A DNA stretch of 35,219 nucleotides from a virus (Duplodnaviria > Heunggongvirae > Uroviricota > Caudoviricetes). The notes under the pieces are model-generated. The model was not told where the DNA came from and did not search any database. It worked only from the letters and a program-made list of their open reading frames with translations. The DNA lies in the IMG/VR virus record IMGVR_UViG_2548876867_000017, positions 1 to 35,219 of that record. The stretch is one strand, 5' to 3'. Shown one piece after another: positions 981-35,219 of the stretch. Position numbers and translations under genes: made by a program. Position 1 is the stretch's first letter; every line of letters begins with the position of its first letter.

Positions 981-1322
981 ATGAAAAAGACTATCTACGC
1001 AATTATTGTTTCTGTGTGTGTTGGTGGCATCGGTGGATTTGTTTGTGGGTATGACTATTCCGATACTCAACATCAAGAGACTATCCGGTCAAATAAGGCC
1101 GAGATTAAGGATCTGAATCAGGAGATTAGCCAGTTAGAAAATGCTCTCTCACTCAAAGATAGTGAATATAGCGAGGTTTATGCAGATAAACAAAAATATT
1201 GGAAAGAGAAAGATAATCTCGTTGTTTACGGGATGAAATTGTGTAAGAGCATGAAGGATGAGCGCAGTTGCTTAATGGAACTTGCCCTTAAAGGTAACGT
1301 GACCATCGACTTCAAAGACTAA
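981..1322 (+). CDS. membrane-anchored coiled-coil protein (signal-anchor or spanin-like architecture)
   Basis: RBS AAGAGGA upstream of ATG; N-terminal hydrophobic segment then heptad-like charged region. Confidence 0.55.
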   Translation: MKKTIYAIIVSVCVGGIGGFVCGYDYSDTQHQETIRSNKAEIKDLNQEISQLENALSLKDSEYSEVYADKQKYWKEKDNLVVYGMKLCKSMKDERSCLMELALKGNVTIDFKD

Positions 1323-1615: not shown

Positions 1616-1651
1616 GCCCCTATCGTTATAATACACGGTAGGGGCGTTTTT
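1616..1651 (+). terminator. rho-independent terminator (loop contains TATAAT-like hexamer)
   Basis: GCCCCTA..TAGGGGC stem followed by GTTTTT after the 1354..1599 stop; loop TTATAATACA could double as a -10 element for the recombinase gene. Confidence 0.5.
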
Positions 1652-1664
1652 GTTTGGAAATGGT

Positions 1665-3344
1665 ATGAAAACTAAACTGTATTCGTATATTCGCTTCTCA
1701 TCTATGCGTCAGAATGATGGTTCGAGTTATGAACGGCAAATCAGGATGGCGAGAGAGGTTGCGGCAAAGTATGACCTTGAACTGGTAAATGATTATCAGG
1801 ATCTGGGTGTATCTGCGTTTAAGGGTGCTAACTCTAAAACAGGGGCGCTATCTCGTTTCCTTGATGCAATTGGTAGATCCGTTCCTGTTGGTAGCTGGCT
1901 ATTCATTGAAAACTTGGACCGTTTATCCCGTGCCGATATTGTCAGTGCGCAGGAGTTATTCCTTTCAATAATCCGTAGGGGGATAACCATTGTTACTGGC
2001 ATGGATAACAAGATCTACTCGCTGGATACTGTTACCGCTAACCCGATGGACCTGATGTTCTCCATCCTTTTATTCATCCGTGGTAATGAGGAAAGCCAGA
2101 CTAAGCGCAATCGTACTAACTCAAGCGCACTGATTAAGATTAAAGCCCATCAAGAAAATCCCCAGAATCCGGCAGTGGCAATCGAGGAAGTTGGAAAGAA
2201 TATGTGGTGGACTGATACCACTTCCGGTTATGTGCTGCCTCATCCGGTGTACTTCCCTGTTGTTCAGGAGATTGTGGAATTGCGGAAGAATGGACGTTCA
2301 ACCGCCGAAATACTGGATCACCTTAACGAGACTTATACACCGCCACCAGCGGTTAGCAACAAGAAGCATTCAAAATGGTCACGGGCAATGGTTGAAAGGT
2401 TGTTCCATACCCGCGCTTTGATTGGTATCAAGGAAGTCTCTGTAGATGGTGTTAATTATGAGTTAAAGGATTATTACCCTCGTGTTATTGATGATGCTAC
2501 GTTCTATCACCTTAAGAAAAATATTGGTGCTAGAGCATGGAACTTTGGAGACAAGGAAGAAGTTAAACCGATCCCCCTGCTTAGTGGTATTGGCCTATTG
2601 AAATGTGATCATTGCGGTTGCGCTATGGTTAAAGTGAAGGGAACGAACAAACGTTCTGACCAGTATCGTTATACATGTGATGCGACCCGTTCACGTAGAC
2701 TTGATTGTGAGCATCCAAACTGGAGTTTTCGAGGCGACCAATTAGAGAAAGCTGTATTGCAATTGCTGGCTGATAAAATCTGGATTGCTGAGGACAAGGC
2801 TAATCCGGTTCCGGCGTTGAAAGTACAGGTTGATGAAATATCACGCAAGATTGATAACCTGATTGCCCTTTCTGCTATGACAGGAGCAACGAAGGAGTTA
2901 GCCGATCAGATTACTACCCTCAATAGCGAGCGTGAAACACTCTACAATCAGATCAAGATGGCAGAAGAGGAAATGTATTCTGTGGACTCTCAAGGCTGGG
3001 AGAAGCTCGCAGAATTTGATTTAGAAGATGTTTATAACGAGGAACGACTAAAGGTCCGGTTTAAGATTAAGCAAGCTCTAAAGCGGATCGGGTGTAGCAG
3101 GATTGACAGAAACAAAAACTTGTTTGTACTGGAATACATCGATGGAAAAACCCAGAGAGTTGTAATAGAAAATTCAAGAGGAACGAGGAAAGGCCGGATC
3201 TTCATTGATTTGAAAACTATCAATGATAGGCAGATTCTGGAGAGCAACGGGCTTGTTCTGCATCCATGTTTAGACATGCTGACAGATAAGAACTGGAAAC
3301 CAGAAGAGGAAATACCAGGTCCATTACAGGAATTTGGAATTTAA
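1665..3344 (+). CDS. large serine recombinase (integrase/resolvase family)
   Basis: N-terminal catalytic motif YSYIRFSSMRQ with conserved Ser, DRLSR motif, Cys-rich zinc-ribbon segment (CDHCGC..CDATRSRRLDCEH), C-terminal coiled coil; start moved from TTG 1650 to ATG 1665. Confidence 0.85.
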   Translation: MKTKLYSYIRFSSMRQNDGSSYERQIRMAREVAAKYDLELVNDYQDLGVSAFKGANSKTGALSRFLDAIGRSVPVGSWLFIENLDRLSRADIVSAQELFLSIIRRGITIVTGMDNKIYSLDTVTANPMDLMFSILLFIRGNEESQTKRNRTNSSALIKIKAHQENPQNPAVAIEEVGKNMWWTDTTSGYVLPHPVYFPVVQEIVELRKNGRSTAEILDHLNETYTPPPAVSNKKHSKWSRAMVERLFHTRALIGIKEVSVDGVNYELKDYYPRVIDDATFYHLKKNIGARAWNFGDKEEVKPIPLLSGIGLLKCDHCGCAMVKVKGTNKRSDQYRYTCDATRSRRLDCEHPNWSFRGDQLEKAVLQLLADKIWIAEDKANPVPALKVQVDEISRKIDNLIALSAMTGATKELADQITTLNSERETLYNQIKMAEEEMYSVDSQGWEKLAEFDLEDVYNEERLKVRFKIKQALKRIGCSRIDRNKNLFVLEYIDGKTQRVVIENSRGTRKGRIFIDLKTINDRQILESNGLVLHPCLDMLTDKNWKPEEEIPGPLQEFGI

Positions 3345-3417: not shown

Positions 3418-4416
3418 TTAAAGAGCCTCTAAAGGGCTTAAATCGAGTTCTAAGTCTTCCGGTGTTAAATCAGCTAACGGTGCATTCATCCACTGCGATA
3501 AATCTCGTTCTATGTCTTCATCACTAATGTAGTTGTTCAGATTGATTGCGTTGGTATCATCAAAATACATTGGCTTAGATGGGTTGGTGTGGATGTATTC
3601 ATTGATGAATGATTTAACATCTTTCAGCTTGCTAATCGGTAGCGTTTCTGTGAATCCGCTATTCATTACCTTACGTGGGATTTTCTTGCCCTGAATATTC
3701 TTTTTAATCCCCATTTCTAAATCACCAGCTTTCCATCCAATGTTAAACAAATGTGAGCATTCAAAGGTGATTTTCTCGCTGGTGTGCTTCTGGTGTTCTC
3801 TTACCCGTTGCATCGGATCTTTGCGAGTGGTAATTCCATATTTGAAAAACTTCTCGCCAACACGAATTAGATAAAAGTGCATAGGGCGCTGTGCAAACTT
3901 GTTTCTGATAACCTGTTTTCTACCATTCTGAATTGATTTAAGTACACCCCTAACCAAAGGGCATGTTAACCCGCCTTGTCTGCGGTTATTGTGTAAATCA
4001 CCTTTCTTGTGAATCTTTCCGTGGCACTTACAACGAAGAATTAGTTTAGTGTCAACACCCTGATAAGGTTCAGCCAGACCTAACACATCCCACCCTATCG
4101 GCTTGTAGAACTTGCGAGCGTTTTCTAAGTGTTCTTCTTCGGTAAATCTAAACTTCTTCTTAGGCGGTGATACTCTATCTTTGCCAGTAAACTGACCAGT
4201 TAGAACATGACTAATACATGGCGTTTTAACCTTTCCGTTAACTTCTATGCAAACTTTGGTGTTCTGGAATGGTTTCTTTACAGGAAGCACAAAACCACTG
4301 TATAACCACCCATGCACTTGACAAACTTTAATGATTCTGGTTTCATATTCGACCGGAGGGGTCGCACGTTTGCTTTTTGCGGTAAATTCGATATCCTTTG
4401 CTAAAGTAGTATTCAT
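3418..4416 (-). CDS. putative homing endonuclease-like protein with GIY-YIG-related (T5orf172-like) motif
   Basis: Internal segment HFYLIRVGEKFFKYGITTRKDPMQRVREH resembles the T5orf172/GIY-YIG-like signature; Cys/His cluster CKCHGKIHKKGDLH; RBS GAGGA upstream. Confidence 0.45.
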   Translation of the reverse strand: MNTTLAKDIEFTAKSKRATPPVEYETRIIKVCQVHGWLYSGFVLPVKKPFQNTKVCIEVNGKVKTPCISHVLTGQFTGKDRVSPPKKKFRFTEEEHLENARKFYKPIGWDVLGLAEPYQGVDTKLILRCKCHGKIHKKGDLHNNRRQGGLTCPLVRGVLKSIQNGRKQVIRNKFAQRPMHFYLIRVGEKFFKYGITTRKDPMQRVREHQKHTSEKITFECSHLFNIGWKAGDLEMGIKKNIQGKKIPRKVMNSGFTETLPISKLKDVKSFINEYIHTNPSKPMYFDDTNAINLNNYISDEDIERDLSQWMNAPLADLTPEDLELDLSPLEAL

Positions 4417-23043: not shown

Positions 23044-25050
23044 TCATTCAGCGGAGATGTGAAGAACTTTCAGCGCTTCCGGCTGGGTTACAACGTAATC
23101 CAGATCTACCCAGATACGCGGAACGATAGCAGACTGTGCGCGGTAGGTAGTGTCATCAATGTCAAGTTCCAGACCACCCCATTCACCGATGGTAATAGCG
23201 TCGAACGATCCCAGAACGATGTGGTCTACCGGAATAACACCAGAAGTAACTACGTCGTAACCAGCCAGTTTACCGTTTTCGATGATATAACCGGAAACGC
23301 CGTTATCTTTCAGGGTAGATTCCAGTTCAGCAGCAGTTGCACCGCTCATCGCAAACTTGATCGCCTGAGCAGGAACGCCAGCGTCCGTGAGCTTTGCAAT
23401 CTCCTTGAGGAAGTCTTTATAAGAGAAAGCAGCTTTCTTCTCTACGCGACCAGCATCTACCAGTTGTTTAATCACACCAGCCGGACCACGAGCATTTTCT
23501 TTGTCGGACAGAATCAGTTGTTCCAGTTTGATGCGAACAGCCTGGTTAATGTGATCAGTGATCAGGGTAGCGATGCCGGGTACGGTCTTGAGGCTAGCTC
23601 TGCTGATCGGATTCCCACCAGCAAACGTCTTAGGAGCCATTTTCACGTTTGCAAATTCAGCTTTACCTTCCGGCGCAGCACCGTTTTCATCAACGAAGCC
23701 GAAAGATTCAACGCTGGAAGCGGTCATTTTAGGAATAGCGGTCGGTGAAGTCAGACCAGACAGGACTTTCACACCAAGACGACCCAGAACGGATTCCGGC
23801 AACAGCATCGCTACATAGGAATCATTCAGCAGTTTTTCGTCGGTTACAGCGGTCAGAGTAGCTTTGGTGTTACCATCAGCAGCAGCACGCATAGCAGCAG
23901 TCGGAACGAATACAGAGCCACCGCGAGCAGCACGACCACGCTGCATAGTTGCAGTAGCAGCCATTGCAGAAAACTCGGCTTCGTGAGCACCCAGAGCTTC
24001 ACCATCTACCAGAGAGCGAATTACGTTGTTCAGGTCAAAAGTTTTTTCCATTTTAGAGTCCTTAATTTGTTGTTCGTTATTACGTTGAGCATTGGTAATG
24101 TTATTTAGTGCCTTAGTGCGGAATGCTTCCGGCGTCATATCTTTAATTGCCAATGCGCGTTCTAATTCTTCGTCGTTAATATTTAACTCACGAGCGATTG
24201 CTCGGATTTCTTCTTCGTCTTCTTCGGAACGTTCAGCCACTTCTTCGATTTTTTCTTCTTCAACCGGAGCAGCTTCACGTTCTTCTTTTACTTCTTCTGT
24301 TTCCCGAACAGTTGAACTATCATCATCAACACTTTCAGGATGTTCAGCGTCTTTTCCGTCTTCGAGATTTTCATCTTCTTTATTCTCTTCAACTTGGCGC
24401 TCTTGAGTTTCTTCTACTTCCGATTCTTTATTTTCTTCTACCGGAGTTTCTTCAACCTGAGCGGATTCTTGTTCTTCTTTGATTTCTTCAATTTGTTCTT
24501 TAGTCATATCGCGTTTAGCCTCCAAATTAACTGTGATAGTATTTAGAGAGCGATTTAAACCGACCGAATCGTCCGCCGGGACCGTAACAAAACTTAATTC
24601 GAAAGGAACAAACTTAGTAACAATCAATTGTCCTTTGGCATAATCGATGTGATATTCTTTAATGTCATAGCCGACAGAAATTTTTTCCATCGTACCTTCA
24701 ATGACCTTATTACGAATATCATTAGCCAAAGTGCCATGCTTAGAGAATCTAACGGTCGCACGGCCTACTTTATCCGCATCGATTCGAGCGTTACAAACGA
24801 CACCTAAATGATTATCGAAATTATGATTAAACAGCAACGGAGCGTTATTATTCAGACGAGACAGATCAACCGCTTCCGGTGTATGTATCAGAATTTCATC
24901 TAATACCACCATTTCTTGATTTTGCTCATCCCAGAATTGGCGCTGATAAGGCTGTTCACTGGAGAAAGCAATTTCAAATTCGTATTGATCGTTATGCCCT
25001 TCGTTAATAACTCCACCGTAACCGTTAAGTTCGCGGCGAAATTTAAGCAT
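23044..25050 (-). CDS. fused prohead protease - scaffold-like linker - major capsid protein (HK97 fold)
   Basis: 668 aa; N-terminus has HK97-type protease motifs (APLLFNHNFDNHLGVV, ISVGYDI, ELSFVTVPADDSV); acidic Glu-rich middle; C-terminal about 350 aa with capsid-like pattern and strong codon bias; RBS AAAGGTGA. Confidence 0.8.
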   Translation of the reverse strand: MLKFRRELNGYGGVINEGHNDQYEFEIAFSSEQPYQRQFWDEQNQEMVVLDEILIHTPEAVDLSRLNNNAPLLFNHNFDNHLGVVCNARIDADKVGRATVRFSKHGTLANDIRNKVIEGTMEKISVGYDIKEYHIDYAKGQLIVTKFVPFELSFVTVPADDSVGLNRSLNTITVNLEAKRDMTKEQIEEIKEEQESAQVEETPVEENKESEVEETQERQVEENKEDENLEDGKDAEHPESVDDDSSTVRETEEVKEEREAAPVEEEKIEEVAERSEEDEEEIRAIARELNINDEELERALAIKDMTPEAFRTKALNNITNAQRNNEQQIKDSKMEKTFDLNNVIRSLVDGEALGAHEAEFSAMAATATMQRGRAARGGSVFVPTAAMRAAADGNTKATLTAVTDEKLLNDSYVAMLLPESVLGRLGVKVLSGLTSPTAIPKMTASSVESFGFVDENGAAPEGKAEFANVKMAPKTFAGGNPISRASLKTVPGIATLITDHINQAVRIKLEQLILSDKENARGPAGVIKQLVDAGRVEKKAAFSYKDFLKEIAKLTDAGVPAQAIKFAMSGATAAELESTLKDNGVSGYIIENGKLAGYDVVTSGVIPVDHIVLGSFDAITIGEWGGLELDIDDTTYRAQSAIVPRIWVDLDYVVTQPEALKVLHISAE

Positions 25051-29089: not shown

Positions 29090-29176
29090 GTAATTACCCT
29101 CATTACGAAATATGAAGGTATTTATTAAGTTGTTGATTTTTTGATAAATACGGGTATTAAGATTTAAGGGGGTTGT

Positions 29177-29782
29177 ATGCTAATTGATCAGCAACAAAGA
29201 GATGAATTAGAATTAGCCTTTTCTTGTTGTACCGATCATGAATATCGTTTGCCAGTTAAGCACCATCACAAGAAGACTGATTACACAACATCTGGCTTTA
29301 GTCGTGAGGAAGCTAAACAGATTTTAATCGAGTTGTATCGCGATCATGGGTATACCGATATTCATAACTTCTTTAAGAAGCATCGCACATCACAGACAGA
29401 GTTTCAGCGAGTCCGTGAGTGGTTTGATTTTGACATTAAGCGATTCTATCGAGTAGATGACGGTCCTATCTATCGGTTGCAGTGGAAGCCGATCCGAGAA
29501 GTGCTTAAACAGAAGAGATTGAATCATGCCATTACACGCTATCGTAATGTGGCTTTCAAGAAAGGCTATGGTGATACAAGGGAATTGTTTGTAGAACTCG
29601 CTAACGTGCGATATAGCCATTATTACAGGAATCCTAAAGAGTTCTTCGAAGTGCTGCGCAAGGTTGATATAAGTCGGGGTACATACTATTCACGGTTGAA
29701 GAAGTACGGGATTAAGGCAGAGTTTTTTATGTCAGTTGACGATGGAGAACTTTTTCCGATAAAATGTAAGTCCTCTAAATAA
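29177..29782 (+). CDS. protein with C-terminal resolvase/transposase-type HTH motif (putative transcription regulator)
   Basis: 201 aa; C-terminal [16 protein letters not shown] fits the HTH_7/HTH_23 pattern; RBS AAGGGGG; divergent from the terminase operon. Confidence 0.5.
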
Positions 29783-30124: not shown

Positions 30125-30955
30125 TTACAGTCCGAAGACTTCCAGTGATCCAACATTCTGACGGAGACGTTCAGCCGCTTTATTTTGAATCAGAATAGTG
30201 TTGTTCGGCTTAGGAAGATTCAGAGTTGCTTTTTGTTCTTCTTCCAAAACACCCAATTCAACCAGCACCGGAAGCACATCAACAGTAAACTCAAGTTGGT
30301 AGTGAGCATTCATGCGGCAGAAAGAGAGAGAAGAATCATTAGCAACATACCCACACGGCTTGTTATTTTCATCATAGACGCGCTCGATGTATCCAGCAGT
30401 ACGTAAGGCCGTCAGTGCTTCTTTAACCTTCGTAGCGCCCTTTTTAGCGCCTAACAGACGGGTCATTGAATGGCTATCTACAGACTTACGAACATGAAGT
30501 TCAATCAGTTGTTTGTTTTCGCGAGTTTTCTTTAACGCCAGTTCGATCCAGTCTGTTTCTTCAAAGTGTTCATATGGATTAACCGGAACATTAGCTTTCC
30601 CTTCTTTCATCAAACGCCATTCTTTAGCAATTTTGAAGCGAAGCGGTGCATCGTATCCCATAACCAGAGTATTACAGAGATCTTCGTCCAGTTCATACAT
30701 CGGGCGAGATTGATTATTCTTATCAAAATATGAAGATTCTACAAAATACCCCAGCGCAAAATTGCGCCCGGCTAATTCGCTTCCTTTTTCAAGAGAATCA
30801 ATCATGCGACGAAAATCACGCATAACATCCTTATGATTCTTTCCGGTCAATTCAGCAATCTGACGGGTAGACATGGTCAGCGGTTTGGTGTTATCAACAA
30901 CCAGAGACACGGAAGCAGTTTTAACAGCAGTATTCATAGTAGTAACAGTATTCAT
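30125..30955 (-). CDS. Rha-family / antirepressor-like regulatory protein
   Basis: N-terminal TMSTRQIAELTGKNHKDVMRDFRRMID fits the Rha/ORF6N DNA-binding pattern; 276 aa; RBS AAGGGG. Confidence 0.55.
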   Translation of the reverse strand: MNTVTTMNTAVKTASVSLVVDNTKPLTMSTRQIAELTGKNHKDVMRDFRRMIDSLEKGSELAGRNFALGYFVESSYFDKNNQSRPMYELDEDLCNTLVMGYDAPLRFKIAKEWRLMKEGKANVPVNPYEHFEETDWIELALKKTRENKQLIELHVRKSVDSHSMTRLLGAKKGATKVKEALTALRTAGYIERVYDENNKPCGYVANDSSLSFCRMNAHYQLEFTVDVLPVLVELGVLEEEQKATLNLPKPNNTILIQNKAAERLRQNVGSLEVFGL

Positions 30956-31044: not shown

Positions 31045-31377
31045 TTACCAATCGATTTCTACTTGGTCTTCTTCATAATAAGGAATCGCATATTCATAAC
31101 GCCAATTTTCGATGATTTCACGTTCTTCATTAGTAAGAAGGTGATTGTTAACTGGAGTCGCATTGTGATTACCAGCTTCGAATTGCTCGCGAACTTCCAG
31201 CATTGCATGAATACCAGTTAAGGTCATCAGATCAAACGGAACATGCATACTACGGGAGATAGTTTCACGGGATACGCCCCAATCATTTTCTACATGGCTA
31301 GGGGTTACAGAAACGGTTTTGCCGGAGATTTTAACAGTCCAGTCATACAGGGATTTAGTGATGGTAAATTCTTTCAT
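31045..31377 (-). CDS. hypothetical protein
   Basis: 110 aa; RBS AAGAGGA; first gene after the leftward promoter at about 31434-31462. Confidence 0.55.
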   Translation of the reverse strand: MKEFTITKSLYDWTVKISGKTVSVTPSHVENDWGVSRETISRSMHVPFDLMTLTGIHAMLEVREQFEAGNHNATPVNNHLLTNEEREIIENWRYEYAIPYYEEDQVEIDW

Positions 31378-31497: not shown

Positions 31498-31947
31498 TTA
31501 CAGCATATCTAAGCCTTCATCGTAACCGTAGAAGCCACCGTGAGAAGAGAAAGCGATTGGTGCGTAGTCTTCGTCTTCCTCATCTTGTTCTGGGGCTTCC
31601 TGAGCGGTTTCTTTACCGTAATTAAACATTGCTTCATCCAGTTCACGAAGAGTCAAGAAGCTACCCAGGTCAATGTCACCGGAACGGACTTGAAACGGCA
31701 GATCATCACGAACAATAATTGCTGGAATATCGTTGTATTGAAGACGACCCTCATCAGTAAAACAGTCGATGATCACAGTAGGACGACCATTTCGTTTTAA
31801 AGCGTAGAAAGCAGTTGAGTAGTTGGAGTCTTCGGAATGACGAATGATGTTATAACCACGATGAGCGAAAACTTCTAGCATATGGAAGTTACCATAGTTT
31901 TCAGAGTCCAGACCCAGAAGTACGAAAGGAGTTTTAGTATTGATCAT
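31498..31947 (-). CDS. hypothetical protein with acidic C-terminal region
   Basis: Start moved to ATG 31947 (MINTKTPF) with RBS AGAGGA; conserved upstream box shared with gene 3418..4416. Confidence 0.55.
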   Translation of the reverse strand: MINTKTPFVLLGLDSENYGNFHMLEVFAHRGYNIIRHSEDSNYSTAFYALKRNGRPTVIIDCFTDEGRLQYNDIPAIIVRDDLPFQVRSGDIDLGSFLTLRELDEAMFNYGKETAQEAPEQDEEDEDYAPIAFSSHGGFYGYDEGLDML

Positions 31948-32524
31948 AGTGGTATCCTCTAAAAGAAAGTGAATCAAGTAAGTTCACTATTATTTATAAA
32001 GAGAAAATTCTTGTTATTATGAAAGGTGATTGTATTCAGTCGGGCAAAGCCCTCCTTCATGATTTGATTAAATCATCATCAAAACGAAGAAGTATCTTTA
32101 GAATATAAGAATCTTTCTTTTGGAGAAATAATAATCAGGAAGCAATTTAGCAACCGAAGGTTGCAATCCCGAAGGGATACCAATACCTTTCTAGAAAGTG
32201 ATTGTTACTCACTTCGTTCGTTTACTAGAATCAGTTAGTAACTAGTATTAAATCCCTTTCTAAGAAAATCCTTTCAAAAGCGAGTGAACGCCGTAGGCGT
32301 GAACGTGAGCGAAGCGAACTATCCAATCCCTTTCGAATCCTGCTTGCAGGTCTTAGAAGGTGTTGATGGGCGCTTCGCGCACGGCTACGCCGTATTCTTT
32401 TTGCGAGATCTTTCTTGAACGTAGTGAGAGAAAACGAGCAAAAAGGAGAACGTTAGTTCGAATTTTATATTCTATGGTCTGTGGGGTGAAATGTCTTTCA
32501 AGATCATACGCTTATGAGATTGAA

Positions 32525-32648
32525 GTGTAGGGTTAGTGTAGGTGTGTAGGTTTCATAGTGTAGGTTTGAGGGTGTTATAGTGTAGGTTTACTGACTAGTG
32601 TAGTGTAGGCCAATCCCTTTAAAGCGTAGGTTTGTAGTGTAGGTTTTT
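32525..32648. repeat. iteron-like array of about 8 copies of (A)GTGTAGGTTT
   Basis: Direct repeats at about 32525, 32536, 32544, 32558, 32580, 32603, 32626, 32637, spaced 8-23 bp, in an ORF-free region and followed by an AT-rich tract. Confidence 0.6.
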
Positions 32649-32751
32649 CATCAAAAATTTTGATAGAAAATTCTTGTATATTATTTAACCGGAAAATCAC
32701 CAAAAATCGCTGTAAATGTATGATTTAAAAAGAATTATCAAAAGGTCGCCG

Positions 32752-32760
32752 TGCTATAAT
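32752..32760 (+). promoter_or_regulatory. extended -10 promoter element (TGcTATAAT)
   Basis: TGCTATAAT at 32752-32760 in AT-rich region upstream of rightward genes; weak -35. Confidence 0.4.
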
Positions 32761-32840
32761 AGGTTATAAAGGTTGATAATCGTTATCCGCCATTTTCACA
32801 CAAAAATTTTGATAGTCATTTCTCGCTTAGGTCAAGTGCA

Positions 32841-32869
32841 TTGACAACTGTCAAGGATTATTTTATACT
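32841..32869 (+). promoter_or_regulatory. near-consensus sigma70 promoter for rightward genes
   Basis: TTGACA (32841-32846), 17 bp spacer, TATACT (32864-32869); -35 is part of palindrome TTGACA-AC-TGTCAA. Confidence 0.6.
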
Positions 32870-33211
32870 TTTTCTCATTGGTAGGGGTTGAAATTTTCGA
32901 AACAATCCCCATATTGATGATAAACAAGATTTTTTCGTGTATAAATACATGCATGAAATGATTGTTCACTTCTGAAAATCCCCTGATTCACTGTTAACAC
33001 ACACAGCACTGGTTAAACACACAGTGCTTTTTCGATTGAATAATGTACGAATTGATTAATTATTAATCTTCTCTTTAGCAATTCGTGCTCCCACTGATCA
33101 GATATACAGTGGTTTTGCAGGGTTTTCTGAAATGACTTTTATAAATAGAAGTATCGAGGGCGAAAAGCTCTTTTTATTGTCCTTATTAATCCACATTTGA
33201 GGAATCTACTT

Positions 33212-33391
33212 ATGGCTAGACCTGTTAAGTTTACTCGTGAAATGATTGTTGATATTGCTAAACGCTTTTATGGCGATACTGAACGAGGCGGCGAGAATTT
33301 CTTTAAGAAGGAAGGAATTGATAGAAGCGGATTCTATAAGCTAATGAAGAAATACGAAATTCAGATAAAGATTAACGTTCAAGTTTGTTAA
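33212..33391 (+). CDS. small HTH protein (paralog of 29817..30044)
   Basis: Start at ATG 33212 with RBS GAGGAA; ARPVKF..VDIAKRFYG..IDRSGFYKLMKKYEIQIKINVQ parallels the 29817 product. Confidence 0.5.
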   Translation: MARPVKFTREMIVDIAKRFYGDTERGGENFFKKEGIDRSGFYKLMKKYEIQIKINVQVC

Positions 33392-33433
33392 TCCACTTTC
33401 ACTGAGAATTATACGATGGCTTTAAAAATAAAA

Positions 33434-33461
33434 AGCCTCCCTTGTTGCAGCAAAGGAGGCT
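33434..33461 (-). terminator. minus-oriented intrinsic terminator inside rightward gene block
   Basis: AGCCTCC..GGAGGCT hairpin preceded on plus strand by an A-run (U-run on minus transcript); no T-run on plus side. Confidence 0.4.
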
Positions 33462-33507
33462 TGAAATGAACAATTAAAACTAACACAGCATTCAGGAGTA
33501 TTTATAA

Positions 33508-34503
33508 ATGAAAAATTCTAAGCGCATCACCTTCAACCTGTTTATTAAATCCAACGGCAAACTGAACATTACCGTCATGGAAGGTAAAGCAAGCAAACAA
33601 GACAAATCCTTTGAAGTAGTATCCGGTAAGACTCTGACCGAAATGCGTCAGAATGCTGGCATCAAAGACGGTGCTGAATGGCAGATCACTAACCGTTTCG
33701 ACAAACGTCACGTTAAACCTACACTGGTAGAAGGTGAATCCGTTTATTGCTTCGCTCGTGCTGTTAAAGCCGATGAAACTTACTATCTCGCTGTTGTTAA
33801 AACTGCTTCCGGCTTCCGTGCTGTAATGCATCACAAGAGCAAGCGTAACGAATACGGCGTAGAGACCCAGGAAGTCGCAAAACGCTTCCGTACTGTTGCT
33901 ACCGAATCCACTGTAAAGGATGTTTCTGGTACTGTTAACACCGTTAAAGGCGGTTCCTTCTACAACCACGCATTACAGGTTACTTCCTCCTTCTTCTGCA
34001 AAAAAGAAGCACAGAAAGAAGTTGCTCCGGTAGTAGTTGAAGAAGTTAAAGAAGAAGTTGCAGTGGTTGAATCTTCCGAAGTTGAAGCACTGAAAGCACG
34101 CATTGCTGAACTGGAAGCTGAAAACGCATCTCTGAAAGCTGAACTGGCAGCACAGGAAACCACTTTCGAAGTAGCAGCGGTTGAAGTTGAAGCAGTTGAA
34201 GAAAAATCCATTGATGAAGAACTGGAAGAACTCCTTAACTATCGCTGGGGTAACGGTGAAGAAGTAGAACAAGAAGTTGCTCCGGTAGTTGTTCCGGTTG
34301 AAGTTGAAGAAGAATCCGCACCAGTTACCAACTTTGAAACACTGCGCAATAACTTTATGGCTAAATTCAAAACTAGCTGGGAAGATACCGAAGAAGAACA
34401 AGAAGAGATTGATGTAAACGAAGACGAGATCCGCGAAGCACACATGGCACTTCATGACGCTATCTACGACACCAACTACAGCGCCTACGCATACGCAGCT
34501 TAA
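33508..34503 (+). CDS. highly expressed acidic protein with repeat-rich coiled-coil C-terminal half
   Basis: 331 aa; RBS AGGAG; strong bias to highly-expressed E. coli-type codons; basic N-terminal domain, then repeated EVAPVVV(E/P)VE(E) units and leucine-zipper-like EALKARIAELEAENASLKAEL. Confidence 0.6.
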   Translation: MKNSKRITFNLFIKSNGKLNITVMEGKASKQDKSFEVVSGKTLTEMRQNAGIKDGAEWQITNRFDKRHVKPTLVEGESVYCFARAVKADETYYLAVVKTASGFRAVMHHKSKRNEYGVETQEVAKRFRTVATESTVKDVSGTVNTVKGGSFYNHALQVTSSFFCKKEAQKEVAPVVVEEVKEEVAVVESSEVEALKARIAELEAENASLKAELAAQETTFEVAAVEVEAVEEKSIDEELEELLNYRWGNGEEVEQEVAPVVVPVEVEEESAPVTNFETLRNNFMAKFKTSWEDTEEEQEEIDVNEDEIREAHMALHDAIYDTNYSAYAYAA

Positions 34504-34518
34504 TAGAGGGGTGAATCT

Positions 34519-34761
34519 ATGATGAATCAAAACAAAGAATTTCTGGGTAATCTGATGTTAGAAATTACCAAAATGAAAGAAAGAATGGTAGCGATGGAAT
34601 CAGAGATTAAAACTCTTAAAGCTGATAATAAGGCGTTGAGAAAGTCCTTAAAGCTGATTGATGAGACTAATGCGGTTATGATGGATCATGTATTCCCTGA
34701 GTGGCGAAATGAAACTAAACCTACACAACATAAGAAACTTACACTTCGAATTGTTGCATAA
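34519..34761 (+). CDS. small coiled-coil protein
   Basis: 80 aa; RBS GAGGGG; heptad-like pattern. Confidence 0.5.
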   Translation: MMNQNKEFLGNLMLEITKMKERMVAMESEIKTLKADNKALRKSLKLIDETNAVMMDHVFPEWRNETKPTQHKKLTLRIVA

Positions 34762-34766
34762 AAAAA

Positions 34767-34784
34767 GGGACTCCGAAGAGTCCC
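34767..34784. terminator. hairpin terminator (orientation ambiguous)
   Basis: GGGACTC-CGAA-GAGTCCC perfect hairpin just after the 34761 stop; A-run upstream, partly T-rich downstream. Confidence 0.5.
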
Positions 34785-34869
34785 TAGTAAGTTTAGGTTA
34801 GGTTTGCACAACAAAGATGAGGTTATAATGAACATAATGCTACATTATTCTTTAAAGCCAGAAAAATAA

Positions 34870-34886
34870 CCGCCCCTTCGGGGCGG
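34870..34886 (-). terminator. minus-oriented intrinsic terminator
   Basis: CCGCCCC-TTC-GGGGCGG hairpin with A-run on the plus-strand 5-prime side; downstream of the small minus-strand ORF at the window edge. Confidence 0.45.
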
Positions 34887-35045
34887 GAGGATTAATACTC
34901 AATCTATACTTGTTATGTTTTTATGTTGTATAGATCCTGACTATGAAAACACTGTACTGGATGTGTGTTTTTATGGCTTTTAATCGGGAATCCTCAAAGA
35001 AGATCCCCTGTTAATAACCATAAGGAGAAAAGGCAGATTACACTA

Positions 35046-35219
35046 TTATTTAGTATCCTTTTTACAGCAACTAAAAAGAATAAACAAAAAGAAGCATACC
35101 CAGCCGTAAGGCGTACCGATTAGAAATTTGAAAAACACCACCAGCGATATAAAAATCAATTTAATGCCAGCGACGATAGTCAAAAACAGCAGAGTAGCAA
35201 AGTAGACAAAAAGATCCAT
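35046..35219 (-). CDS. small hydrophobic membrane protein (possibly truncated at window edge)
   Basis: Minus-strand ATG at 35219; translation MDLFVYFATLLFLTIVAGIKLIFISLVVFFKFLIGTPYGWVCFFLFILFSCCKKDTK has two hydrophobic helices; below ORF-track cutoff. Confidence 0.3.
   Translation of the reverse strand: MDLFVYFATLLFLTIVAGIKLIFISLVVFFKFLIGTPYGWVCFFLFILFSCCKKDTK

Follow-up and report, generated by a model that had tools for sequence, protein, structure and literature searches.

A type-specific protein paired with a repeat array in the control or origin region of a phage is a kind of system that is already known. The repressors of phages Mu and D108 differ in their N-terminal DNA-binding domains and in their operators, and the initiator O of phage lambda, whose signal for ClpX is N-terminal, joins a type-specific N-terminal domain (N-domain), matched to four 18-bp iterons, to a separate C-terminal partner-binding part. 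O is a substrate of ClpXP, and the C-terminal tail of the Mu repressor is a ClpX recognition determinant (PMC10584840). In iteron plasmids, the gene of a ~300-amino-acid (aa) binder (P1 RepA, F RepE, R6K pi, pSC101 RepA or RK2 TrfA) lies near direct repeats phased at ~22 bp with an AT-rich neighbour; such Rep proteins are acted on by the Clp and DnaK chaperone systems, with ClpX activating TrfA (references in PMC10584840). Here we analyse a 35,219-nucleotide (nt) stretch of viral DNA (the window; positions 1 to 35,219 of IMG/VR record IMGVR_UViG_2548876867_000017), and in it one gene on the plus strand that encodes a 331-aa protein with an array of direct repeats upstream. An original prediction, made from the letters alone, had called exactly this open reading frame (ORF; 33508 to 34503) and left its product unassigned. 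Our analysis suggests that it is best read as an abundant, dimeric, probably short-lived array-binding protein.

The N-terminal domain and an upstream repeat array as a candidate matched pair

The gene, its start region and the array are laid out as follows.

32524 to 32644, plus strand: direct-repeat array, 8–9 copies of (A)GTGTAGG(TTT) in one orientation, the putative binding site of the N-domain
32645 to 32745: AT-rich block directly to the right of the array, with 78% AT over its first 100 nt (99.9th percentile of the window)
33494 to 33510, plus strand: translation initiation region of the gene, AGGAG, a 9-nt A/U-rich spacer (GTATTTATAA) and ATG
33508 to 34503, plus strand: gene of the 331-aa protein, an orphan family (ORF call, codon adaptation index, homologue set)

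The array sits ~0.87 kb upstream of the gene, in a 1.2-kb ORF-free stretch to the left of the operon. Its core motif AGTGTAGG occurs seven times in the window against 0.37 expected, with six of the seven inside the array, and the spacings between copies are mostly 11, 14 or 21–23 nt. Across the related lineages, arrays hold 5–17 copies in the same orientation, spacings cluster at 11 and 21–22 nt, and the array of one locus (L019) has seven perfect tandem 11-mers, a geometry that is iteron-like as judged from its letters. The AT-rich block is near-identical beside the unrelated CGGGGA array of loci L034 and L052.

Relatives were gathered through synteny and through a better-conserved 201-aa regulator encoded in the same region. 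All of them keep the gene order, a ~60-aa gene followed by a gene of 309–371 aa at the position of the 331-aa protein, and these positional homologues have an acidic coiled-coil middle in common while their N-domains differ. When both elements were typed automatically, N-domain type and array motif corresponded one-to-one in all 46 typed loci without exception, giving six or seven types, of which type D rests on one extra locus (L048) outside the 46-locus set.

Type A N-domain: repeat AGTGTAGG, 7–9 copies
Type A2 N-domain: repeat GTGCAGG, 5–6 copies
Type A' N-domain: repeat CTAGGGAT, 17 copies, seven of them the perfect tandem 11-mers
Type B N-domain: repeat CAGGGGCAA, 7–10 copies
Type C N-domain: repeat CGGGGA, 13 copies
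Type D N-domain: repeat CTTGTACATC, 5–8 copies

The signature G.(R/W)(G/A).(M/L).H.S.R(N/D) ... F.I.FF unites types A, A2, A', C and D in one diverged superfamily, and the type B N-domain is unrelated to type A (hhalign probability 0.4%). Since proteins of types A and B are homologous in their C-terminal halves all the same (E 4e-5), a domain has been swapped together with its site; the acidic middle, too, retains its homology where the N-domains are unrelated. The family mounts two or more unrelated kinds of N-domain on one shared chassis.

Identity matrices of the module proteins single out the N-domain as the sole protein segment that separates by array type: pairs with the same array are at least 77% identical in it and pairs with different arrays at most 47%, the 47% pair having arrays one base apart. 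Other genes of the region behave differently. Loci L016 and L017, which carry different arrays, have 201-aa regulators that are 100% identical, and their 159-aa proteins and small terminases (TerS) are 87% and 91% identical. The 59-aa gene is 77% identical between L016 and L019, with different arrays, and 58% identical between L016 and L018, with the same array. As this gene lies between the array and the gene of the 331-aa protein and does not track the array, the pairing is not simple linkage, and remnants of other array types at array edges reveal past replacement of cassettes.

Together, these comparisons indicate that the N-domain and the upstream array are a matched, co-exchanged pair, and we consider it likely that the N-domain recognises the array. 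Their co-variation points to sequence-specific recognition of the phage's own DNA or transcript rather than to a generic DNA mimic or a single-stranded DNA-binding protein (SSB). The candidates first put forward for this gene (DNA mimic or anti-defence protein, SSB-like protein, host-takeover factor) therefore lose ground, as the evidence points elsewhere.

A mosaic protein with an ssrA-like C terminus

By its sequence, the 331-aa protein is a mosaic of three exchangeable modules, namely a basic N-domain, an acidic linker-zipper-linker and a small C-terminal module.

33508 to 34002, plus strand: N-domain, residues 1–165, a basic, beta-rich, type-specific module
34003 to 34317, plus strand: acidic linkers rich in E, V, A and P flanking a zipper-like helix (charge, repeats, predicted helix)
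34018 to 34038 and 34273 to 34293, plus strand: EVAPVVV repeats at residues 171 and 256, with ~20 nt of DNA identity
34075 to 34155, plus strand: core of the zipper-like helix, residues ~190–216, within the AlphaFold2 helix of residues 190–246
34318 to 34485, plus strand: C-terminal segment, residues 271–326, of the '...LHDAIYDTNYS' type, the second exchangeable module
34486 to 34500, plus strand: C-terminal YAYAA tail, an ssrA-like putative ClpXP degron (comparison with the ssrA tag, conservation)

A basic N-terminal and a very acidic C-terminal half had been described beforehand, and the charges bear this out: residues 1–165 have a net charge of +12 and an isoelectric point (pI) of 9.8, as against −35 and 4.05 for residues 166–331. 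Structure prediction, which had been suggested as a follow-up, gave an N-domain of medium confidence and a long helix. In the AlphaFold2 model, residues 5–112 adopt a beta3-alpha2-beta3 arrangement at a predicted local distance difference test score (pLDDT) of 63–91, residues 190–246 form the helix, and confidence is low elsewhere. The N-domain is near-invariant in sequence within the E. coli type A lineage, with a ratio of non-synonymous to synonymous substitution rates (dN/dS) of 0.045; the corresponding ratios for the linker and C-terminal segments are unreliable owing to insertions and deletions and were not used.

The leucine-zipper-like segment noticed earlier coincides with the predicted helix and gives weak bZIP-type hits. 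A heptad periodicity runs through its core (...LKARIAELEAENASLKAEL...), where one core position is Asn; following GCN4-type zippers, we take this as the mark of a parallel dimer, so that the middle of the protein probably forms one. The 'near-identical repeats' of the original prediction proved modest, a single 7-aa motif (EVAPVVV) that occurs twice, the rest being E/V-rich low complexity. Insertions, deletions and other variation cluster at residues 241–270, in the second acidic linker, and close variants range from 326 to 339 aa. The '...LHDAIYDTNYS' type of C-terminal segment is conserved within the lineage and recurs in the type B protein of L016, and an alternative 'WN.YV' type, found in L003, L018, L019 and L047, is shared by type B and type A' proteins.

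The C terminus itself resembles the ssrA tag: the protein ends in ...DTNYSAYAYAA, to be compared with AANDENYALAA, so that YAYAA is one position off YALAA. The terminal Ala-Ala carboxylate is the main ClpX determinant of the ssrA tag, a YALAA tail is sufficient, and further ClpXP substrates also end in Ala-Ala (PMC7652416). YAYAA fits the description of such substrates in that article, a C-terminal ...x-A-A-COOH within at least five accessible residues, and low pLDDT at residues 321–331 suggests that the tail is probably exposed. In the window, the 331-aa protein is the only one of 37 that ends in AA, and YAYAA is kept in 120 of 121 close variants. Most lineages finish in -AA: it is found in types A, A2, A' (L003), B (L018, L047) and C, behind residues that diverge (YAYAA, RRAA, LKAA, ARAA, RKAA, DFAA). 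Unlike the ssrA tag, which is added by tmRNA, this tail is genetically encoded, and some lineages end in -CQ, -AM or -VA instead. By analogy, the protein is likely to be labile to ClpXP.

Codon usage suggests high expression

Codon adaptation index (CAI) values, a calculation proposed along with the original prediction, were computed with the Sharp and Li E. coli w table. The gene of the 331-aa protein scores 0.685, the maximum of the 37 genes of the window, which agrees with the claim that it has the most extreme E. coli-type codon bias there. That it should be merely comparable to the capsid and tail tube genes understates the case, as it lies above both (tail tube 0.611, protease–capsid fusion 0.467). 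Its two halves score 0.68 and 0.69 and the wrong reading frames ~0.15. An AT-rich genome encoding a Glu/Lys-rich protein does not account for the bias: without Glu and Lys codons the gene still ranks first (0.634), in two-fold families it prefers codons ending in C to those ending in T (fraction 0.68 versus 0.38 for all other window genes), and its Arg and Gly codons are all CGY and GGY (13/13 each).

Diverged homologues score 0.58–0.72, each the highest gene of its own locus; the Proteus homologue scores 0.36 with the E. coli table. On the same index, the top gene of phage lambda is the capsid gene E (0.449), and O, cII, cI and cro lie at 0.26–0.27. This bias suggests that the protein is very abundant; the 'early' timing attributed to it is inferred. 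The start region 'GGAGTATTTAT(AA)ATG', which overlaps one copy of a second motif, GTATTTATAAA (see below), is kept in type A and type B loci.

A family without known relatives

The 331-aa protein appears to found a new protein family without known relatives, confined to an uncultured prophage lineage of Escherichia, Shigella, Salmonella and Proteus. About 200 matches were found, all at least 92% identical, from E. coli or Shigella and named 'hypothetical'; an exhaustive phmmer search of 1.84 billion representative proteins gave six hits, among them three diverged full-length relatives at 66%, 44% and 31% identity. Searches of Pfam, PHROGs, NCBIfam and PADLOC with the protein and all its neighbours, and of the PDB (by sequence, with full-length and N-domain profiles, and by fold, together with BFVD), returned nothing beyond coiled-coil noise, so that the earlier verdict of a protein unassignable from sequence still holds. 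None of the control-region proteins (201, 110, 159, 59, 80 and 331 aa) has a family hit. The N-domain had no fold or sequence neighbour, its profile search finding none outside the family. Types A and B were unmatched in megablast and tblastn searches of INPHARED phages and PLSDB plasmids, tblastn of the 331-aa protein against 50,697 phage records gave zero hits, and two scans of genome contigs yielded nothing confirmable.

A possible role in replication, weighed against its alternatives

What an array-binding protein would do here is a matter of balance. We tentatively favour an origin-recognition or replication-organiser protein of the phage, a reading we hold at somewhat below even odds. 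Several observations lean this way: the array is iteron-like and has a constant AT-rich element beside it, within a strong sigma-70 operon the gene is preceded by a Cro-like one, no other replication candidate was recognised, a separate candidate for the developmental switch exists, and lambda O and TrfA provide Clp precedents. In this scheme, the protein would bind the array cooperatively on every copy of the phage genome, with the zipper dimer and its flexible acidic linkers placing two N-domains on neighbouring repeats of the same orientation. The constant AT-rich block would serve as the unwinding element, the C-terminal module would bring in a partner from host or phage, and ClpXP turnover through the -AA tail would keep the pool of free protein short-lived. 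Continuous turnover, together with 8–17 sites on each replicating genome copy, would explain a very high rate of synthesis.

One close parallel is lambda O. Both are ~300-aa proteins encoded after a small Cro-type gene in a rightward operon (the position of O in the lambda annotation), and both have a type-specific N-domain matched to type-specific repeats by an AT-rich region, the array being a putative origin here, as well as a separate C-terminal part for partner binding, putative in the 331-aa protein. There are also differences: the repeats lie 0.87 kb upstream in intergenic DNA, whereas those of lambda lie inside the gene; they are 5–17 short same-orientation copies rather than four 18-bp iterons; no gene for a P-like loader was found; and the proposed degron is a C-terminal -AA. 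The protein gave no match to lambda O-type initiators (Phage_rep_O) in Pfam, PHROGs or NCBIfam and no fold similarity to them. Iteron plasmid Reps are paralleled in the ~22-bp phasing, the AT-rich neighbour and the nearby gene of a ~300-aa binder; neither a tandem winged-helix fold nor a match to the Rep_3 profile was seen in the 331-aa protein. None of the initiators or repressors compared unites extreme codon adaptation, long acidic linkers and an ssrA-like tail as the 331-aa protein does.

A number of points weigh against a replication role. The co-variation is a correlation, and because many of the loci are near-clonal it amounts to ~6–7 independent types, not 46. No helicase, loader or primase partner was recognisable, nor any replication initiator or polymerase, in the window, in L001, L004 and L015–L019 or in the stretch beyond the right end, and origin tests found no consistent DnaA boxes or IHF sites near the arrays. 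The codon bias is far above that of lambda O (0.685 versus 0.269), which is atypical for initiators. The model of the N-domain, of medium confidence only, differs from a winged helix, and the fold search gave it no counterpart among known DNA-binding folds. The gene after that of the 331-aa protein is variable, encoding 80 aa, 109 aa or 333–363 aa, or absent. Nor do all lineages have the -AA end: the main type B lineage of E. coli has -CQ throughout (-SYCQ in L016), type D (L048) has -AM and the Proteus copy (L019) has -VA, so that the family's core function cannot depend on turnover. Finally, promoter-like sites that point leftward and rightward flank the array, a divergent arrangement that suits an operator equally well.

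This last point leads to the main rival, which we judge to be unlikely yet the most serious of the alternatives: a transcriptional or immunity regulator following the logic of the Mu repressor or lambda CII, in which the N-domain would sit on an operator array, the zipper would oligomerise, and a stability set by ClpXP would time the choice between lytic and lysogenic programmes. The co-variation data also fit a regulator with its operator cassette, and some array copies of L002 and L016 lie against strong promoters or overlap them. The architecture also parallels that of Mu repressor c in its N-terminal DNA-binding domain with an operator array, leucine-rich oligomerisation region in the centre and C-terminal tail controlling degradation by ClpXP (PMC10584840; binding and degradation being putative here), and ssrA-like tags are known on phage regulators of integration-dependent immunity systems (PMC9635641). 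The two proteins differ, however, in that they share no homology, that ours is ~135 residues longer with long acidic linkers, that its gene comes behind a Cro-like one in a strong sigma-70 operon and is not placed divergently like that of a maintenance repressor, and that its codon bias implies a far higher abundance; lambda regulators have a CAI of ~0.26. The distance from array to promoter varies across lineages from ~20 to ~200 nt. Moreover, a separate paralogous helix-turn-helix (HTH) pair, with its own motif (GTATTTATAAA) at six regulatory positions, already looks like a switch and can account for one, which leaves the 331-aa protein free for another role, and to make it the regulator would leave the phage without a candidate for origin recognition.

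A bolder version of the replication role, which we regard as distinctly improbable, would make the protein the founder of a new class of genome-recognition proteins in phages, an extremely abundant dimeric 'array reader' timed by proteolysis, with plug-in N-domains and matching repeat cassettes that pass between phages. In this version, the protein alone would nucleate replication at an origin for which no phage-encoded helicase, loader or primase is required, and the ClpXP capacity of the host would set the duration of each round of origin firing or of lytic commitment.

Slightly less probable still is an architectural organiser of the genome that would coat the array stoichiometrically in the manner of phi29 p6 or a ParR-type centromere binder, form a nucleoprotein complex or condensate on every phage genome and serve compaction, segregation to a site of replication or packaging, or protection, instead of being a classical initiator. 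Its expression as predicted from codons, above that of the capsid and tail tube genes, would suit such a role, a folded domain with acidic disordered linkers, short repeats and a dimerising helix is typical of multivalent assemblies, and the tandem 11-bp repeats, seven of them in L019, resemble ParR–parC-type arrays. Against this, no homology to ParR, omega or p6 and no partner NTPase or filament gene was found, and an integrating prophage needs no partition system.

There is little to recommend a binder of single-stranded nucleic acid that would read the repeats in a transcript or in single-stranded DNA, as TRAP- or HutP-type proteins or a sequence-preferring SSB might. A transcript or single strand is formally compatible with the co-variation, as noted above, but fold hits to SSB/OB-fold and PUR/Whirly-type proteins were below significance, the 11/22-nt spacing fits the helical repeat of DNA and not the 2–5-nt spacers of TRAP or HutP sites, and a plus-strand terminator at 32381 to 32402 separates upstream promoters from the array.

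A DNA mimic, an anti-restriction, anti-defence or host-takeover factor, or a decoy substrate that saturates ClpXP seems very improbable. The C-terminal half with its charge of −35 and the very high inferred expression speak for a mimic, and an ssrA-like tail could compete for ClpXP; but the strict pairing of the N-domain with the phage's own array would be left unexplained, and the acidic part is predicted to be helix and disorder rather than a folded mimic. Nor did PADLOC, Pfam, PHROG or Ocr/ArdA-type families give a match, and the N-domain is under strong purifying selection within a type, with no arms-race diversification.

Last, a structural or assembly protein is largely refuted and scarcely credible: like T7 gp9 and P22 gp8, the protein is acidic, coiled-coil, ~300 aa long and highly expressed, it gives a marginal Pfam hit to Phage_scaffold (PF06810, E 0.012), and no TerS gene adjoins that of the large terminase (TerL), but the hit reaches 16.1 bits against a cut-off of 35 and covers the coiled coil only, the capsid fusion has an acidic segment in cis, and the gene is on the strand opposite all morphogenesis genes, in a sigma-70-driven operon ~8 kb from the capsid gene. 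The check for scaffold or structural homology that accompanied the original prediction turned up nothing beyond this coiled-coil-level match. As for a small terminase, that identity belongs to a 184-aa neighbour (PHROG 57), and neither TerL nor TerS identity tracks the modules of the 331-aa protein (L002 and L018 are 92% identical in TerL and 31% in the C-terminal part of the 331-aa protein).

If array binding is true, it would be the first functional assignment in a control region in which every gene is unannotated, and the 331-aa protein would represent a new family, with at least two unrelated N-terminal folds, for sequence-specific recognition of a phage control or origin region. The six or seven natural pairs of N-domain and repeat form a specificity series for the co-exchange of recognition modules and sites, and could supply orthogonal binder/site pairs for engineering. 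To combine extreme expression with an ssrA-like tail would be an uncommon way of regulating a protein, and possibly a link between host protease capacity and phage development.

Operon and neighbouring regulatory elements

The 331-aa protein is encoded in the middle of a short rightward operon.

32841 to 32869, plus strand: sigma-70-type promoter of the operon, TTGACA-17-TATACT (11/12), with the palindrome TTGACAACTGTCAA over its −35 element
33212 to 33391, plus strand: 59-aa HTH-like protein, the first operon gene, conserved upstream of the gene at the position of the 331-aa protein in every lineage
33433 to 33462: A-tract and hairpin between the 59-aa gene and that of the 331-aa protein, conserved, with its T-run on the minus strand
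34519 to 34761, plus strand: 80-aa basic coiled-coil protein, the last operon gene, a short form of the 333–363-aa partner of other lineages

The promoter is conserved in L004, L002 and L017, and L016 has 12/12 and 11/12 promoters at the equivalent place. A location downstream of near-consensus promoters, as originally described, is thus right for one conserved 11/12 site, which lies ~670 nt upstream; none is evident directly before the gene. Between promoter and gene lie a leader with two elements of hairpin and T-run (33003 to 33035 and 33156 to 33178) and the 59-aa ORF. In the leader, between both elements, a 33-nt non-coding block (33066 to 33098, CTCTTTAGCAATTCGTGCTCCC(A/C)CTGAT) is near-invariant between phages whose 331-aa-type proteins are 44–66% identical, and L002 has a second partial copy ~80 nt upstream. 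The A-tract and hairpin element is absent in L003, where the 59-aa-type gene and the following gene are 37 nt apart.

The two halves of the 201-aa protein (29177 to 29782, plus strand) are each paralogous to the 59-aa protein (BLASTP E 2e-6 and 0.003), and each 59-aa-type module has a Fis/resolvase-like helix, '(I/T)S(R/Q)..(F/Y).(K/R)(L/V).K(K/Y)'. Their sequences suggest that the two may be a CI/Cro-type pair of two modules and one module. The GTATTTATAAA motif, allowing at most one mismatch, has six copies in the 35-kb window, all at regulatory positions.

29118 to 29151: inverted pair of GTATTTATAAA copies, between the TerL gene and the 201-aa gene
31990 to 32000, 32938 to 32948 and 33138 to 33148: three GTATTTATAAA copies in the gap
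33498 to 33508: GTATTTATAAA copy over the Shine–Dalgarno sequence and ATG of the gene of the 331-aa protein

These positions come from a motif scan, which counts four copies in the gap against 0.17 expected. The motif is constant across array types, with the same layout in L004, L002, L016, L018 and L019, and probably serves either as an operator for another regulator or as part of promoters.

The 80-aa protein keeps a coiled coil and a C-terminal '(K/R)(L/P)TLR(I/L)V(A/G)' tail in common with L034_g2 and L048_g2. The larger partner is a 333–363-aa basic orphan ending in RPTLRLVA (L034:13393-14394 and L048:14615-15706), without a family hit. Another repeat, CTAATACCGGGG(A/G), recurs at ~22-nt spacing in L048 and L034 and might belong to this 333–363-aa protein.

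To the left of the array, a GC-rich hairpin cluster at 32130 to 32470 (plus strand) has folding z-scores, relative to shuffles, of −5.1 on the plus strand versus −3.4 on the minus strand. The cluster ends at the plus-strand hairpin and U-run of 32381 to 32402, and its sequence is kept in all lineages whatever the array type. A structured non-coding RNA or a single-strand initiation signal is possible, with the alignment-based consensus being weak and the region cuts uneven; Rfam gave no match over 31900 to 35219.

Prophage context

The DNA of the window belongs to a temperate siphophage that has integrated in E. coli. Its main features outside the control region are given below.

1650 to 3344: large serine recombinase
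23044 to 25050, minus strand: Peptidase_S78–major capsid fusion with an acidic E/V/P-rich insert at residues ~180–300
30125 to 30955: Rha-family gene
31045 to 31377 and 31498 to 31977, minus strand: first two genes of the leftward operon, the latter given first in the operon, both acidic orphans (for 31498 to 31977 and 31045 to 31377, respectively, pI 4.3 and 4.8, CAI 0.48 and 0.50)
L001:24186-24740, minus strand: TerS, 184 aa (PHROG 57, E 1e-9 to 1e-22), just beyond the right end of the window

A leftward block from ~29.1 kb down to 3.4 kb holds terminase, portal, protease–capsid fusion, tail, tape measure, fibre and lysis genes. No recombinase other than the integrase and no LexA-type repressor was recognisable in the window, L001, L004 or L015–L019. 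The right arm is present in ~63 of 5,426 complete E. coli genomes (about 1%), and the closest terminase match in an isolated phage is 44% identical. The prophages use two or more insertion sites, inside ycdX and next to hicB (L001 = NZ_CP038857; L015 = NZ_CM136169); the literature on ycdX prophages offered no lead. In L001, an IS1 element has removed head genes and the operon of the 331-aa protein is intact.

The TerS gene is split from that of the large terminase by the whole control region; a PDB search with the 184-aa protein was uninformative. Its place on the minus strand at the right end explains two tandem minus-strand terminators (34766 to 34785 and 34870 to 34886), which would stop its transcript before the operon of the 331-aa protein. 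The insert of the capsid fusion has a net charge of about −38 (four 30-residue windows, 181–300) and a composition that resembles the acidic linkers of the 331-aa protein, and is probably an in-cis scaffold or delta-like segment.

Both leftward acidic orphans exceed the capsid gene in CAI and are candidates for abundant early proteins, and the 159-aa protein ends in a tail of conserved acidic/aromatic character, ...DYAPI.FS...Y(D/N)E(G/A)(L/F)DML. Near the integrase, a 113-aa membrane/coiled-coil protein (981 to 1322, plus strand) gives weak PADLOC hits to DRT-associated SLATT/RmuC (E ~5e-4), and a 332-aa basic protein after the lysis genes (3418 to 4416, minus strand) matches PHROG 681, 'endonuclease' (E 4e-20), with a weak hit to PD-Lambda-1; these two may be cargo or defence genes.

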